A stretch of DNA of 64,000 nt, from assembly GCA_014729395.1 (NCBI GenBank), contig WJJZ01000001.1:67727-131726 (forward strand), read 5' to 3'. The DNA is from Candidatus Magasanikiibacteriota bacterium (GTDB taxonomy: Bacteria; Patescibacteriota; Patescibacteriia; Magasanikbacterales; UBA922). Under the pieces are notes generated by a model that searched no databases, was not told where the DNA came from, and was given only the letters and a program-made list of their open reading frames with translations. This document shows positions 14,947 to 55,738 of this stretch, piece after piece. Position numbers and translations under genes: made by a program. How positions within the stretch are numbered: position 1 is the stretch's first letter; every line of letters starts with the position of its first letter.

Positions 14947-15471
14947 GTCTTGTTCATTATAGATGATCGTCCACCAAAGCCCGAACGAAGTGAAGGCGAA
15001 GGTGGAAGGAAAGTCCGAACTTCCCCTAAAATATTTTAGGGTCATGGTAGTGGGTAACACCCACCTGGGCATTGGCGACAATGTTTGCGGGAAAGTGCCA
15101 CAGAGACTATACTAATTGCGAAGCAACTATGGTGCTTCGCAGCCAAACGTGAAAAGTGTAAAGATGTTTAATTTTATCGCGTACGCTATAAATTAAGCTA
15201 CTTTACTCCGGCCGTGGTGACACGGTTTGGTGGTAAACCCTACCTGAAGAAAGAGCAGCGTCCCGACTTTAGTCGGGATGAAAAGTTAGCTCGTTATTAT
15301 CCTGAGTATATCGAAGGATTAGAGTTTGTTGGTAACAGCAGACCTAGATAAATGATCATCGCCCTTCGCTAAAGCTACGGGCGACAAGTCCAATTCAATA
15401 GAAAGAAAGGGACTTGTACTCCGAAGCTTTAGCGTAGGAGTACAAAATTCGGCTTATTTAATGGACAAGAC
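14947..15471 (+). ncRNA. rnpB: RNase P RNA (bacterial type A, with lineage-specific helix expansions, ~525 nt)
   Basis: Conserved GGAAGGAAAGTCCGAAC (P4), GGTAACACCCACCTGGG, GGGAAAGTGCCACAGAGA, GGTGGTAAACCCTACC, CCTAGATAAATGA and ACAAAATTCGGCTTATT. P1 pairing is GTCTTGTTCATTA with TAATGGACAAGAC. Confidence 0.85.
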
Positions 15472-15475
15472 AAAA

Positions 15476-15507
15476 AAGATCCCGACACATCGGGATTTTT
15501 TGTTGTG
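15476..15507 (+). terminator. Intrinsic terminator of rnpB (GATCCCGA-CACA-TCGGGAT + T6)
   Basis: Hairpin 15477-15497 then TTTTTT. Confidence 0.6.
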
Positions 15508-15591
15508 TGCTGGAGAGAGGACTTGAACCTCCACGACCTTGCGGCCACAGGCCCCTCAAGCCTGCGTGTCTACCAGTTCCACCACTCCAGC
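15508..15591 (-). tRNA. tRNA-Leu (anticodon GAG), class II with a long variable arm
   Basis: The reverse complement folds as a cloverleaf: acceptor GCTGGAG/CTCCAGC, anticodon arm CAGGC-TTGAGGG-GCCTG, variable arm TGGCCGCAAGGTCGT, T-arm GGAGG-TTCAAGT-CCTCT, discriminator A; CCA not encoded. Confidence 0.85.
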
Positions 15592-15625
15592 GTTTATTCT
15601 TTTGTTTAATATGATAATTATTTAT

Positions 15626-15694
15626 TAGCCTGCGTGTCTACCAGCTTGCCCCGCGAGGAGCGAAGCGAGTTTTGCGGGGTTCCACCACTCCAGC
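15626..15694 (-). repeat. Partial duplicate of the tRNA-Leu 5' half (nt 1-33) interrupted in the D-loop by a 35-nt GC-rich hairpin (15645-15679)
   Basis: 15626-15644 and 15680-15694 are identical to 15558-15591 of the tRNA-Leu gene. The insert is CTTGCCCCGCGAGGAGCGAAGCGAGTTTTGCGGGG. No 3' half follows. Confidence 0.6.
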
Positions 15695-15702
15695 TATATG
15701 AT

Positions 15703-16467
15703 TTAAAATCGTCTATCTTTCCCCACTACCATCTCTACTCTGCTTTTAGCCAATCTAATTTTAACTCTCGTTTCTTTGGATCTCTTGCCGTCAGCTTCTA
15801 CGACGAATGGCTTTTTACTGCTTACAATCATCTCTTCAAAAGGAAAAACACTGGGATCTTCTGTCTTAACCCGGCCAAACAATCCTTTTTTTATAATAGG
15901 TAAAACAAAAGCTTCCAATTTTCCATCTTGGGGATGAACGACCCAGTCTTTTTTATTTTTCCTGTGCCAAGTAAAAGGTTGTAAATTACAAACTACCAAT
16001 TCCAGTTTACTCTTGTCAGATGAAACTTCAAATTTTTCATCATATTCTATCATAATATCACTCGGTGGTATATGAAGACGTGATATAAAATAACGATTAT
16101 TCATCCAACCTGCATCCAACCTAAGTTTGCGACGCCTGGACAACACATCACAAGCATCTTCACCTACCGGAATTCCTAAAACTTTTGCTATATCATTACC
16201 CGGTCCCACCGGTAAAAAACCAAATAAAATATCACATGTTGCCGCACGTGATAAAACATGTCCGATTGTCTCGTCATTACCAACAACCACAATAGTCGTA
16301 GCGCCCTTGCTCAATTCTTCATCAACAATCATTTTCGTATCACTAAAATTTTGCAGCCGAATTATCTTACCGGCAATGCCGTAATCTGTCAATCTCGTTT
16401 CCATTGCTTTGACAGTGGAAGCAAATTTTTTCTGACGTAAAAAATTGTCGTACAAATAGACATACAT
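15703..16467 (-). CDS. Diacylglycerol-kinase-family lipid kinase (YegS/BmrU-like)
   Basis: DAGK catalytic-domain motifs VVVGNDETIGHV (GGDG-like) and LPVGPGNDIA. Confidence 0.6.
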   Translation of the reverse strand: MYVYLYDNFLRQKKFASTVKAMETRLTDYGIAGKIIRLQNFSDTKMIVDEELSKGATTIVVVGNDETIGHVLSRAATCDILFGFLPVGPGNDIAKVLGIPVGEDACDVLSRRRKLRLDAGWMNNRYFISRLHIPPSDIMIEYDEKFEVSSDKSKLELVVCNLQPFTWHRKNKKDWVVHPQDGKLEAFVLPIIKKGLFGRVKTEDPSVFPFEEMIVSSKKPFVVEADGKRSKETRVKIRLAKSRVEMVVGKDRRF

Positions 16468-30069: not shown

Positions 30070-32769
30070 TTATTTTAAACTTTGTAATTGAGAATTTAAT
30101 TTTTCTAATTTGCTTTTAGCTTCTTCCATTTTTCCTTTTTCTTTCTCTACTACTTCTGCCGGTGCGTTATCAACAAAATTTTCATTGTTTAACTTCTTTT
30201 CCAGGGAATTTATATATTTTCCCAGATCACTAACCTCATTGTTTAATCTGGATTTTTCTTTTTCAAAATCAACTACCCCACCTAACTTAATATACACCTC
30301 AACCCCACCAACAACAAAACCGATTGATTCGTCAGGTTTATCAACCTTAACTTCAATCTCAATATTTTCTAACCGTGCCAAACCTTTTATTACTTCAGTA
30401 TTCTTATCCAAAATTTCCTTTTCATCACCAGCAGAAACAACCACATCTAGTTTCTTAGCCGGGTCAATCTTATAATCGGCCCGGAGTGAACGGATATTTG
30501 TAATTATATTTTTTAGCAAACCAAAATCTTCCGAACCTCCAACGGCGGCCTTGCCCACCGTAGCTTCAGCGAAGGTGGGCCAACTTTCTACCATTAAAAT
30601 ATTATCTTTTCCATAAATCTGCTGCCATAAAGTTTCTGTTACAAATGGCATAAAAGGATGCCATAATTTTAGAATTGTATTTAAAATATAATTTAAAACT
30701 TTTGATTTATCGCCTTCTATTTTAGCGATCTCAAGATACCAATCGGCCAATTCACTCCAAGTAAAATCTCTTAGTTGCTCACCAGCAGATGAAAATCTAA
30801 AAGATTCCAGGTCATTAGTCACAAAAGATGCGGTCTTTTTTAATTCATTAAGAATCCATTTATCCGCCAAAGTCTCTGCTTCCGGAACTTTTAAATCTTT
30901 GTTCATTGTTTTCTTTTCACTGGTCACCGTTAATTGTATATATCGACTGATATTCCATAGTTTATTGGCAAAATTCCTAAAGCCGGCAATCTTCTCTTCT
31001 GATAATTTCATATCATTACCCGGAGTATTGCCAACAAGCAGTGACAAACGGGTAGCATCAGCTCCGTACTTTTCTATCATATCAAGCGGGTCAATTACAT
31101 TACCCAGACTCTTACTCATCTTTCTACCCTGTTCATCCCTTACCAATCCATGTAAATATACTGTTTCAAATGGAATTTCTCCCAAAGTATATGTAGTCAT
31201 CAAAATCATCCTGGCTACCCAAAAAAACAAAATATCATAGCCGGTTTCCATTACCGTTGTAGGATGATAGGTTTTTAAATCACTGGAATCCAAATTTGGA
31301 TAACCCAGTGTGGAAAAAGTCCAGAGCCCGGAACTAAACCAGGTATCCAAAGTATCCGGATCTTGCTGCCAGCTCTCTCCCTCCGGGGCATCTACACCAA
31401 CATAAGTTTCATCGCCTTTGTACCAAACCGGTATTCTATGACCATACCAAATTTGACGACTAATACACCAGTCACGCAAATTATCTATCCAATGAAAATA
31501 TGTTTTTTCAAATCTATCCGGTACAATTTTAATCTCTTTGGCCCGAACCACATGCTGCATCAATTTTTTGAGTGTTACGGATTCTCCGTCTTTTAGTCCC
31601 TCTATAGGATTATCTTTTGATTGCTTAAATGCAAATTCTTTGTTTACATCTATAAACCACTGTCTTGAAGTTAGCGGCTCAATCGTATGTGAACAGCGAT
31701 AACAAATAGAAAGATTATTGGCGATTTCTTCCTCTTTTTCCATTAAGCCTTCTTTTTTCAGAGCTTCAACCACTTTCCGTCTGGCTTCTTCGACACCCAA
31801 ACCTTGATAGGCTTCTCCCGCCTTTGCAGTCATTTTTCCATCTTCATCTATTACCTGAATAATTTCCAAATCATTCTTTCCGGCCATCTCGTAGTCAACA
31901 TGACTATGAGCCGGAGTGACACCAAGAGCCCCGGTGCCAAATTCACTATCCACTTCTTCGTCACCAATAACTTTTATCTTTAAATCCGGACCACCGGCAA
32001 AATTTTTAATTTCAAAAACCTCACCTATATATTTTTTATATCTGGAATCTTTCGGATTCACAGCTACAGCCGTATCCCCCAGTTTTGTTTCCGGTCTGGT
32101 GGTGGCAATGGAAATTGGGAAATCTTTTGAGTATTTAAAAGTATATAATTTGGTTTGTTGTTCTTTGTACTCTACCTCATCATCAGCCAAAGTGGAGTGG
32201 CACCTTGGGCACCAATTAACAATTCTGTGTCCGCGATAAATTAACCCATCGTCGTACATCTTCTTGAAGACTGTTCTAACGGCCAGGTTCCTCTGCTCAT
32301 CCAGAGTAAAGGCTTCTCTACTCCAATCCAAAGACGAACCCATCTTTTTTGTTTGGTGAATAATTGTATCGTGTGACTCTTGGGCGAACTTATTCACACG
32401 CTCCAAAAATTTTTCTCTACCCAATTCTTCTCTAGGGTTATCAAGACCCTCTTCCATTAAAATTTTCTCCACTTTTGTCTGGGTGGCAATAGCGGCATGA
32501 TCGGTTCCCGGCACCCATACAGTTTTTTTACCTTTCATGCGACTATACCGGACCATTAAATCTTCTATTGCGAGCATAGCGGCATGGCCCATATGGAGTG
32601 TCCCGGTAACATTTGGAGGTGGTAAAACAATGGAAAAATGCTTGGCTTCTGCATCGGTTTTTCCTTTTTCAACACATTTATCAGGATTAAAAAAACCACT
32701 TTCCTCCCAGTGTTTATAAATATTATCTTCGTAATTGTTAGGCTCGTAGGCCTTTGGAAGTTCTTTCAT
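30070..32769 (-). CDS. valS: Valyl-tRNA synthetase
   Basis: PPPNVTGTLHMGHA, KMSKSLGN, C-terminal coiled coil. Confidence 0.9.
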   Translation of the reverse strand: MKELPKAYEPNNYEDNIYKHWEESGFFNPDKCVEKGKTDAEAKHFSIVLPPPNVTGTLHMGHAAMLAIEDLMVRYSRMKGKKTVWVPGTDHAAIATQTKVEKILMEEGLDNPREELGREKFLERVNKFAQESHDTIIHQTKKMGSSLDWSREAFTLDEQRNLAVRTVFKKMYDDGLIYRGHRIVNWCPRCHSTLADDEVEYKEQQTKLYTFKYSKDFPISIATTRPETKLGDTAVAVNPKDSRYKKYIGEVFEIKNFAGGPDLKIKVIGDEEVDSEFGTGALGVTPAHSHVDYEMAGKNDLEIIQVIDEDGKMTAKAGEAYQGLGVEEARRKVVEALKKEGLMEKEEEIANNLSICYRCSHTIEPLTSRQWFIDVNKEFAFKQSKDNPIEGLKDGESVTLKKLMQHVVRAKEIKIVPDRFEKTYFHWIDNLRDWCISRQIWYGHRIPVWYKGDETYVGVDAPEGESWQQDPDTLDTWFSSGLWTFSTLGYPNLDSSDLKTYHPTTVMETGYDILFFWVARMILMTTYTLGEIPFETVYLHGLVRDEQGRKMSKSLGNVIDPLDMIEKYGADATRLSLLVGNTPGNDMKLSEEKIAGFRNFANKLWNISRYIQLTVTSEKKTMNKDLKVPEAETLADKWILNELKKTASFVTNDLESFRFSSAGEQLRDFTWSELADWYLEIAKIEGDKSKVLNYILNTILKLWHPFMPFVTETLWQQIYGKDNILMVESWPTFAEATVGKAAVGGSEDFGLLKNIITNIRSLRADYKIDPAKKLDVVVSAGDEKEILDKNTEVIKGLARLENIEIEVKVDKPDESIGFVVGGVEVYIKLGGVVDFEKEKSRLNNEVSDLGKYINSLEKKLNNENFVDNAPAEVVEKEKGKMEEAKSKLEKLNSQLQSLK

Positions 32770-55317: not shown

Positions 55318-55390
55318 GCGCCTGTAGCTCAGGGGTTAGAGCACAACGCTTATAACGTTGGGGTCGGTGGTTCAATTCCACCCAGGCGCA
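55318..55390 (+). tRNA. tRNA-Ile with a genomically encoded UAU anticodon (loop CTTATAA)
   Basis: Canonical cloverleaf: GCGCCTG/CAGGCGC acceptor, D-arm GCTC-AGGGGTTA-GAGC, anticodon stem CAACG/CGTTG, T-arm GGTGG-TTCAATT-CCACC, A73; CCA not encoded. Confidence 0.8.
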
Positions 55391-55394
55391 CAAT

Positions 55395-55658
55395 ATGCAC
55401 TACGTTTATTTTCTCTGGAGTGAAAAATTAAAAAAAATATATATTGGGGAAAATAAAAATGTTTTGAACAGACTTGATTATCATAATAAAGGTTTGCAAA
55501 GATTTACTAAGAGAGGTATCCCCTGGAAACTTATAGGAGTAGTAGAATTCAAAGACAGAAAAGAAGCTTTAAAAGAAGAAAAAAGACTTAAAAAATGCAA
55601 AAATAGAGATTATTACAAAAAATACTTATTAGAAAAAGGAGGAAAACTCAGTGGTTAG
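55395..55658 (+). CDS. Small GIY-YIG nuclease-domain protein (87 aa)
   Basis: YVYFLWSEKLKKIYIGENKNVLNRLDYHNKG matches GIY...YIG...R...H...E; the stop TAG lies inside a GGTTAG that mimics the tRNA D-loop. Confidence 0.7.
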   Translation: MHYVYFLWSEKLKKIYIGENKNVLNRLDYHNKGLQRFTKRGIPWKLIGVVEFKDRKEALKEEKRLKKCKNRDYYKKYLLEKGGKLSG

Positions 55659-55717
55659 TCCCGACACGTCGGGATATAACGTTGGGGTCGGTGGTTCAAT
55701 TCCACCCAGGCGCACAA
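55652..55717 (+). repeat. Duplicate of the tRNA-Ile 3' half (anticodon loop to 3' end) preceded by a GC hairpin TCCCGACACGTCGGGA
   Basis: 55675-55717 is identical to 55351-55393; the hairpin 55659-55674 resembles the rnpB terminator hairpin. Confidence 0.65.
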
Positions 55718-55738
55718 AATAAATATTGATATACTTCA

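Follow-up and report, generated by a model that had tools for sequence, protein, structure and literature searches.

A tRNA-Leu(GAG) half-copy with a D-loop insert in a Magasanikbacteria genome and its probable relation to small GIY-YIG nuclease cassettes

A tRNA-Leu(GAG) gene accompanied by an interrupted partial copy of itself lies in a 64,000-nucleotide stretch of contig WJJZ01000001.1 from a Candidatus Magasanikiibacteriota bacterium (GCA_014729395.1, positions 67,727 to 131,726 of the forward strand), to which we refer as the window. The intact gene (15507..15591, minus strand) is presumably functional; it is called by ARAGORN and matches the Rfam tRNA model over its full length (51.1 bits, E = 1.6e-9). 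Read along the minus strand, the locus consists of the stop codon (15703-15705) of a DAGK-like gene (PF00781; 15703..16467, minus strand), 8 nt, a first block of tRNA-Leu sequence, a GC-rich insert, a second block, a spacer, the intact tRNA-Leu(GAG), a terminator and rnpB. The terminator, detected in the hairpin and repeat search, is a bidirectional hairpin of the TCCCGA..TCGGGA type (15479..15496, no strand assigned) between tRNA-Leu and its convergent neighbour, the gene for class A RNase P RNA (14950..15472, plus strand; Rfam 116.8 bits).

The two blocks together reproduce the 5' part of the tRNA. Block 1 (15680..15694, minus strand), which reads GCTGGAGTGGTGGAA(C), corresponds to tRNA positions 1-15; with the ambiguous base 15679 included, 15679-15694 equals 15576-15591 at 16/16 positions. 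Block 2 (15627..15644, minus strand), which reads (C)TGGTAGACACGCAGGCT, corresponds to positions 16-33 and equals 15559-15576 at 18/18 positions. Both matches were obtained by direct reading and with a repeat finder. One C is common to the two blocks, which can equally be described as positions 1-16 and 16-33, and the whole fragment amounts to 33 nt with 100% identity to the gene. The initial annotation had recognized this half-copy and its perfect identity, with block 2 placed one base too far, at 15626 instead of 15627. Its reading that the copy stops within the anticodon loop and has no 3' half is borne out: the fragment ends after U32/U33, and no 3'-half copy of tRNA-Leu is present within 1.5 kb of the locus. 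Neither ARAGORN nor Rfam/Infernal calls the upstream copy as a tRNA; it has nothing 3' of position 33 and forms no complete cloverleaf. The segment at 15507-15591 is the working tRNA-Leu(GAG), and the half-tRNA upstream of it is a non-functional relic. An AT-rich spacer of 35 nt (15592..15626, minus strand), read directly, separates the two.

The insert (15645..15679, minus strand), also read directly, splits the fragment in the D-loop after position 15, as first described. Its placement between positions 15 and 16 (site A, defined below) is precise, with zero tRNA bases lost. It is 35 nt long (34 plus one ambiguous base), has 69% GC in a window of 36% GC, and reads CCCCGC-AAAACTCGCTTCGCTCCTC-GCGGGG-CAAG on the minus strand. 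The description of this 35-mer as self-complementary holds for its ends: pairing is limited to the terminal 6-7 nt (CCCCGC/GCGGGG), which enclose a 19-nt non-palindromic interior, and the folding energy is ordinary when compared with shuffled sequences (z = -0.75 to -1.3; 21-42 of 200 shuffles fold equally well). We therefore dropped 'strong palindrome' as a property of the insert. No second copy exists in the window at up to 3 mismatches, the 35-mer is absent elsewhere in the 966 kb formed by the window and 167 related loci, and it is found in no viral contig; Rfam contains no family covering the fragment, the 35-mer or the palindrome composites described below. A repeat of the kind of repetitive extragenic palindromic (REP) or Rickettsia palindromic (RPE) elements would be expected to occur in many near-identical copies, whereas a single copy of the 35-mer is present across the 64-kb window together with 0.9 Mb from related loci; within this sample the possibility, raised at the outset, finds no support. 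The likeness of the 35-mer to the 'family A' hairpins of these genomes is one of loose build only (a GC stem and a CAAG tail). An 11-mer common to the insert and a sucC-like gene is a real match, the chance expectation being 0.32 per window, with at least two matches in 6 of 100 shuffles. The link drawn from it is within chance and was discarded, and the sucC-like site is a separate double hairpin.

A protein from a metagenome-assembled genome (MAG) of Candidatus Magasanikbacteria (Patescibacteria) matches the DAGK-like protein at 100% identity, and the DAGK-like gene served as the anchor for a scan of species-representative genomes that yielded 80 syntenic Magasanikbacteria loci. The order DAGK then tRNA-Leu(GAG) is conserved in this set. 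Of the 80 loci, 73 have a same-strand tRNA called by ARAGORN behind the DAGK-like gene, nearly always tRNA-Leu(GAG); several of those without one are cut off by the edge of a contig. Among the 74 loci for which a downstream tRNA was called, 26 have it starting 2-15 nt past the DAGK-like stop codon; the closest relative (L001, 87% amino acid identity) belongs to this group and has no insert. In the window it is the fragment that begins 8 nt past the DAGK-like stop codon, the intact gene lying 103 nt further downstream. The fragment therefore occupies the ancestral position of the tRNA, and the intact gene has been displaced downstream.

Upstream tRNA-Leu fragments of this kind occur in just six of the 80 syntenic loci (L006, L011, L021, L037, L046 and L070), and five of these six contain an open reading frame (ORF) of the GIY-YIG nuclease family; such ORFs occur in five of the 80 loci altogether. 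An alignment of the window tRNA with those of its relatives revealed differences in both halves and is thus uninformative on chimerism. The slot between DAGK and tRNA-Leu is a general hotspot for small selfish genes, which often fill the long spacers. It holds a LAGLIDADG-type ORF in L005 (4795-5457) and an ORF for a 23S-rRNA-intervening-sequence protein in L028 (4664-4897).

Complete cassettes consisting of a 5' fragment with a hairpin, a GIY-YIG ORF and an intact tRNA, in this order, are present in L021/L081, L046, L070 and L006. The ORFs of L006, L021, L046 and L070 encode 84-93 amino acids, are each directly followed by tRNA-Leu, and match PF01541 with E = 1e-16 to 1e-18. They are of the minimal, UPF0213-like type of about 80 amino acids, and the catalytic Tyr, Tyr, Arg, His and Glu residues are invariant across the aligned GIY-YIG ORFs. 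A conserved 20-nt palindrome, CCTGCCTGCCGGCAGGCAGG, interrupts the fragments either at the D-loop site used in the window or 8 nt further on; we refer to these as site A (positions 15/16, GGAA^YTGG) and site B (positions 23/24, GGYAKA^CRC). The cassette of L021 reads GCGCGGGTGCTGGAAC[ctgcctttgccggcaggcagg]CTGGTAGACAtGCTAGGTTGAGGG-aatt-ATG. In L021, L081 and L082 the insert lies at exactly the site found in the window (GGAA^CTGG), and the fragment also ends in the anticodon loop. Site A is likewise occupied by the palindrome in L096, L114, L122, L124, L125, L131, L132, L136, L138 and L161.

The cassettes vary in content and are distributed sporadically. L021 carries the element, while L020 and L026, with 96% DAGK identity, do not. 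Two loci have an ORF-less arrangement like that of the window, namely L037, which has a fragment only, and the 5' part of L011. Both L046 and L011 contain an additional, displaced 3' fragment with the same palindrome, and the segment inserted in L011 comes with a complete but different tRNA-Leu. In L070 (4870-5219) the copies before and after the ORF both carry the palindrome, and the contig breaks inside the later one; ARAGORN calls no tRNA in this locus, whose only tRNA-Leu copies both carry the palindrome and which ends at a contig edge. L006 (4860-4917) has a divergent GIY-YIG ORF, 38% identical to that of L021, and a tRNA-Leu fragment holding two different palindromes, CCGTGCACCACAAGGGTGCACGG and CCATGTACCCTTGTGGTACATGG, the centres of which are mutual reverse complements and contain ACAAG. 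These two palindromes further support the existence of subfamily-specific hairpins. Lone 20-nt palindromes near tRNA-Leu, with neither fragment nor ORF, were seen in L007 (4825-4846), L031 (1838-1859) and L039 (4874-4895), and may be the last trace of lost cassettes.

The association is not confined to the DAGK locus. Leu-type, L006-type and Ile-type ORFs proved too dissimilar for their joint alignment to be of use in a locus scan, and the metagenome scan was consequently run with an alignment of the four closest GIY-YIG ORFs alone; it returned 80 loci. A same-strand tRNA-Leu lies within 150 nt of the ORF in 66 of them, downstream of the ORF in 58 of the 66 and upstream in the other 8. The palindrome is found beside the ORF, with up to 2 mismatches, in 69 of the 80 metagenome loci, at site B in 37 and at site A in 12-14. 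All five leucine anticodons are represented among the cassette-adjacent tRNAs. Duplication of the 5' half, which had seemed unusual at first, is thus the rule in this family (ORF and 5' fragment upstream of the tRNA in 58/66 loci). Where the tRNA is upstream of the ORF, it is a 3' fragment with the palindrome that lies downstream (L100, L113, L119, L150 and L162).

Nor is the end in the anticodon loop the informative boundary that it was initially taken to be. The anticodon-side end of the fragment varies across relatives from about position 24 to 42, and the constant feature is the hairpin in the D-arm. The duplicated fragment nearly always spans the D-arm, the usual site of the palindrome, and this is also the most conserved stretch among 52 distinct ORF-adjacent tRNA-Leu genes. 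L162 is an exception in having its palindromes in the anticodon loop and the T-arm. This locus, from Aridibaculum aurantiacum, is a tandem array (976-1860) of tRNA-Leu(CAA) followed by two units of GIY-YIG ORF plus 3' fragment, and it is these 3' fragments that carry the palindromes in question.

Homologues of the nuclease are annotated in Magasanikbacteria, Omnitrophota, Ignavibacteriota and Bacteroidota. The same layout is present in two cultured Bacteroidota isolates, Chryseotalea sanaruensis and Aridibaculum aurantiacum, so the pattern seen across the family did not arise through metagenome assembly. The library of GIY-YIG homologues comprises 468 representative clusters at E <=1e-10 and 5,291 at E <=1e-3. 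Many database homologues of the 80-amino-acid nuclease have 20-55 extra N-terminal residues, and we suspect that these extensions reflect start codons miscalled through the tRNA fragment and palindrome. A neighbour-joining tree of the nucleases, which is a rough one, mixes isoacceptors. Viral contigs contain neither the core (29 nt) of the 5' tRNA half nor the junction formed by the palindrome at site B, and an origin from a phage attachment site (attP) or vector was rejected on these grounds. No tRNA-Leu-specific minimal GIY-YIG cassette or palindrome is described in the literature that we searched, and there is none in Rfam.

The window itself holds an intact member of this family of tRNA-targeting GIY-YIG elements, at a different tRNA gene. 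An intact tRNA-Ile(UAU) (55318..55391, plus strand; ARAGORN, Rfam 72.5 bits) is followed after 3 nt by a GIY-YIG ORF of 87 amino acids (55395..55658, plus strand), which was found by tblastn and in the ORF list; an identical database protein, P0241, carries PF01541. Directly behind it lies a hairpin, TCCCGACACGTCGGGA (55659..55674, plus strand), which replaces tRNA-Ile positions of about 23-33 in a partial copy of the gene. The 3' half of this copy (55675..55720, plus strand) starts exactly at the anticodon and is 98% identical over 46 nt to 55351-55396. The final codons and the stop of the ORF (55647-55658) reuse a copy of the tRNA D-loop, CTCAGtGGTTAG. This ORF is a more distant relative of the Leu-type ORFs. 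Its 12 homologues appear to be confined to Magasanikbacteria, to which all those with a taxon name are assigned, and the layout of tRNA-Ile(UAU), ORF and fragment with the same hairpin type at the same place recurs in all five homologous loci checked (L163-L167). The Ile-type element has its own hairpin, which indicates that each nuclease subfamily is associated with its own tRNA and its own hairpin. Bacteria seldom have a tRNA-Ile with the anticodon UAU; as a rule they read AUA with a CAU tRNA that carries lysidine.

Taken together, these data make it fairly probable that the tRNA-Leu feature of the window is what remains, without the ORF, of a small selfish cassette targeting tRNA-Leu, or else a non-autonomous form of such a cassette. 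Like the complete cassettes, it has a fragment beside an intact same-strand tRNA-Leu and a precise D-arm insert at site A. The conserved palindrome and a GIY-YIG ORF between fragment and intact tRNA are missing, and for this reason we regard the feature as a relic or non-autonomous derivative and not as a full member. Among the mechanisms proposed in the initial annotation (integrases, homing endonucleases and split-tRNA arrangements), a mobile process of the endonuclease type best explains the locus; the other two are unsupported. The complete relatives have intact catalytic residues and a sporadic presence at a conserved target. Homing is suggested by these residues, by analogy with other free-standing GIY-YIG endonucleases and by the sporadic, isoacceptor-hopping distribution, which fits a cycle of invasion, decay and loss (compare L021 with L020/L026, the lone palindrome of L007 and the fragment of L037).

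In such a cycle, the nuclease would break an uninterrupted tRNA-Leu gene in its conserved D-arm, and the occupied allele would serve as the template from which repair copies the cassette into the broken allele. One homology arm would consist of the upstream flank and the disrupted 5' fragment (tRNA positions 1-15 matching the fragment), the other of the intact tRNA and the downstream flank (positions 16-85 matching the intact copy), and everything between the two arms would be copied during repair. The essential tRNA would never be lost, and the old 5' end, its target site interrupted by the hairpin, would stay behind where the tRNA ancestrally lay. Applied to the window, 15627-15694 would be the copy left behind and 15507-15591 the working tRNA; the nuclease ORF would have been lost, with the 35-nt AT-rich spacer remaining.

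Several observations weigh against deriving the window feature from a homing cassette. The tRNA-Leu locus of the window contains neither an ORF nor a recognizable remnant of one, the spacer scores no better than shuffled sequences when compared with the leaders and 3' ends of 61 GIY-YIG ORFs, and tblastn detected no Leu-type GIY-YIG gene in the 64-kb window. The 35-nt insert differs from the conserved 20-nt palindrome and is unique in all sequence compared, and the palindrome itself has no copy in the window. The fragment is identical to the working gene at 33/33 positions; the event is therefore recent or has been homogenized by gene conversion, and the loss of the ORF would also have to be recent and clean. 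Other difficulties concern the family in general. The D-arm of the intact tRNA next to the ORF shows no alteration, which leaves the escape of the occupied allele from cutting unexplained. A DNA-binding domain is absent from the nuclease, whose nearest relatives of known structure are the uncharacterized UPF0213 proteins 1YWL and 1ZG2, and its cleavage of a tRNA-Leu gene is a prediction.

The missing ORF and the divergent hairpin could be accounted for without any nuclease if a local tandem duplication, by slippage or unequal recombination, had been followed by insertion of an unrelated RPE/REP-like GC hairpin into the redundant copy. Dispersed GC hairpins of similar build (a GC stem and a CAAG tail) do occur in rnpB, in the valyl-tRNA synthetase (ValRS) ORF and in the sucC-like ORF. 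We nevertheless consider this scenario rather unlikely, as the insert is precise, has cost no tRNA bases and lies at one of the two sites used by the family, which make up about 2 of 32 possible positions, and as the locus matches the family layout in its fragment at the ancestral position, its end in the anticodon loop and its displaced intact copy. Such fragments are, moreover, restricted to six of the 80 syntenic loci, five of them with a GIY-YIG ORF. The same perfect 33/33 identity that implies a recent event would also fit recent activity or ongoing conversion of a feature that is now functional, either as an exapted promoter or leader for the displaced tRNA or as a non-autonomous unit mobilized in trans. 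A sigma-70-like promoter match (TAGACA-18-TATCAT, 10/12; 15611..15640, minus strand) spans the fragment, which contains the TAGACA hexamer, and the spacer, which contains TATCAT, and trans-homing of defunct elements has been reported for phage T4 (PMC2790892). The promoter, however, is a consensus match alone, one site being found where 0.5 are expected, the arrangement is not conserved, L001 lacking it, and the window encodes no cognate Leu-type nuclease. A present function is accordingly a good deal less plausible than decay of a cassette and appears decidedly unlikely.

The remaining alternatives are weaker still. An artefact of assembly has to be considered for a MAG, the more so as the identical DAGK-like protein is known from one contig only and no independent assembly is available; yet the same architecture is found again in two isolate genomes and in dozens of assemblies made independently, the k-mers used in assembly are usually longer than repeats of 16-18 nt, and a mis-join would not explain the unique 35-nt insert. 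We regard such an error as very improbable. A scar of integrase-mediated integration and excision at a tRNA attachment site comes to mind since att sites are classically recognized by partial duplicates of the tRNA; 3'-end tRNA-Leu fragments downstream of the tRNA are present in L028, L052, L054 and L064. In the window, however, the duplicated part is the 5' and not the 3' end, the repeats are just 35 nt apart, and neither the 29-nt core of the tRNA 5' half nor the 35-mer occurs in any viral contig. No integrase is encoded among the ORFs examined around the locus (11.1-20.3 kb), whose products are glycosyltransferase-like (read from the sequence), a sugar transferase, the DAGK-like protein, a bactofilin and histidine kinase or kinase-like proteins. 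An integrase scar is hardly credible on this evidence. The end in the anticodon loop, with a GC-rich stem before it, superficially resembles the tRNA half genes of Nanoarchaeum, and could in principle mark a split, trans-spliced tRNA or the source of a regulatory tRNA-half RNA. An intact gene lies 35 nt away, however, no 3' half was found within 1.5 kb, the D-loop insert would prevent folding of the D-arm, and the closest relative, L001, lacks the arrangement, so that we give this interpretation practically no credence.

Although the ORFs have diverged to about 55-70% identity, the Leu palindrome has stayed nearly invariant, which suggests a sequence-specific role and not mere disruption of the fragment. 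As candidate roles, it might break the target site of the redundant copy, serve a dimeric nuclease as binding site or operator, form a cruciform on which an Slx1-like enzyme acts, or block recombination between the repeats. A wider proposal, to which we give slightly less than even odds, is that these cassettes form an undescribed, cross-phylum class of selfish elements, made up of UPF0213-like GIY-YIG subfamilies each paired with one tRNA identity and with a cognate D-arm hairpin in the duplicated target fragment. The pairs would be Leu (any anticodon) with the 20-nt palindrome, and Ile-UAU with TCCCGA..TCGGGA. The conservation of the Leu palindrome would then suggest its sequence-specific recognition, for example as a binding, immunity or mobilization site for a dimeric nuclease. 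Were this true, palindrome recognition would be a mechanism not known for homing endonucleases.

The relic in the window is of modest interest in itself, and its value is that it exposes a conserved family of tRNA-targeting elements undescribed in the literature searched. Confirmation of the proposal would provide a function and a target for part of the large family of unannotated stand-alone GIY-YIG proteins. The family accounts for the repeated appearance of tRNA-Leu pseudo-fragments and GC palindromes by which tRNA annotation is misled, as in L070. It also offers a simple case of how, in very small genomes, a selfish nuclease can colonize an RNA gene that is essential and present once, with the host surviving, and the near-invariant pairing of palindrome and nuclease could represent a compact module for sequence-specific recognition.

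Other hairpins and tRNA oddities are present in the window. The 'family A' hairpins recur in many Magasanikbacteria loci; their GC stem varies with covariation of the paired bases, whereas the loop, TTCGCTAAAGCTAC, is conserved, and an (A)CAAG tail follows. Two of them, in inverted orientation, form a long extra helix in rnpB (15360-15440), as also in L010 and L017. Another, GCCCACC-TTCGCTGAAGCTAC-GGTGGGC-AAGG (30553-30585, minus strand), lies inside the ValRS ORF of 899 amino acids, within the span of the match to the anticodon-binding domain, and resembles the in-frame insertions of Rickettsia palindromic elements. The sucC-like ORF (62498-63679, minus strand) contains a GC-rich double hairpin at 63010-63058, consisting of TTCGCTCC-GA-GGAGCGAA followed by CCCTGAGCTTGTCGAAGGG. 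Its translation is rich in Ser, Pro and Gly, and it probably represents one more hairpin inserted in frame. A hairpin of the type TCCCGAC-loop-GTCGGGA occurs three times, in rnpB (15260-15279), in the terminator between rnpB and tRNA-Leu (15479-15496) and in the tRNA-Ile fragment (55659-55674). At 40961-41035, ARAGORN reports a tRNA with a 4-nt anticodon (tatc). The segment has a tRNA-like acceptor and T-arm ending in CCA, carries a palindrome, TGCGGCCGGCGCCGCA, at the place expected for the D-arm, and receives no Rfam call at the gathering score; it may be another hairpin-disrupted tRNA.

Among known systems, SegB, a free-standing GIY-YIG homing endonuclease encoded in the tRNA gene cluster of phage T4 and described in PMC2330249 as demonstrably site-specific, offers a close parallel. 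Its gene, like those described here, lies among tRNA genes and outside introns, and SegB promotes its own inheritance together with flanking tRNA DNA. The ORFs studied here differ in comprising about 80 amino acids with a catalytic domain only (UPF0213-like), in being chromosomal and spread over several bacterial phyla, and in that each is invariably accompanied by a duplicated piece of one specific tRNA, disrupted by a hairpin. Cleavage by these ORF products is predicted, whereas for SegB it is described as demonstrated.

An arrangement in which an endonuclease gene is flanked by an intact host gene on one side and a displaced, partial duplicate on the other, leaving the essential gene whole, is likewise known from fungal mitochondria, where C-terminal duplicates of cob and atp6 have been described, with three degenerate LAGLIDADG ORFs between cob and its duplicate (PMC6279837). 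Degenerate ORFs are common among the free-standing endonuclease genes of these mitochondria. The host genes there are protein-coding, it is their 3' end that is duplicated, and the displaced copy has no conserved palindrome, whereas here the target is a tRNA and it is usually the 5' end that is displaced. In the atp6/ORF360 case of Allomyces (Paquin and Lang), the genome is reportedly AT-rich and contains mobile double-hairpin elements of high GC content as well. The att sites of integrases share with the cassettes the direct repeats of part of a tRNA that flank inserted DNA, and the regeneration of an intact tRNA. No recombinase is present here, however; the insert is a single nuclease ORF of 240 nt, or nothing at all in the window, and the repeat is interrupted by a hairpin, with the 5' part most often duplicated.

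Rickettsia palindromic elements insert in-frame into protein and RNA genes, and the 'family A' hairpins in rnpB and ValRS are similar to them in this respect. REP elements with RAYT (REP-associated tyrosine) transposases are short, dispersed, GC-rich palindromes that sometimes flank the gene of their cognate enzyme (PMC3733652). Unlike these, the 35-mer of the window is single-copy in all sequence compared, the 20-nt palindrome clusters at tRNA-Leu genes and is not spread genome-wide in the DNA sampled, and the associated enzyme is a GIY-YIG nuclease and not an HUH transposase. By sequence, the closest solved relatives of the nucleases are the UPF0213 proteins 1YWL (E = 3e-9) and 1ZG2 (E = 2e-7), and minimal stand-alone GIY-YIG proteins have been placed in the Slx1 cluster (PMC1564403). 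The nucleases described here share the minimal single-domain build of the UPF0213 and prokaryotic Slx1-like proteins; but while those have no assigned function or genomic association, the subfamilies found beside tRNA-Leu and tRNA-Ile are each tied to one tRNA identity and one cognate hairpin.

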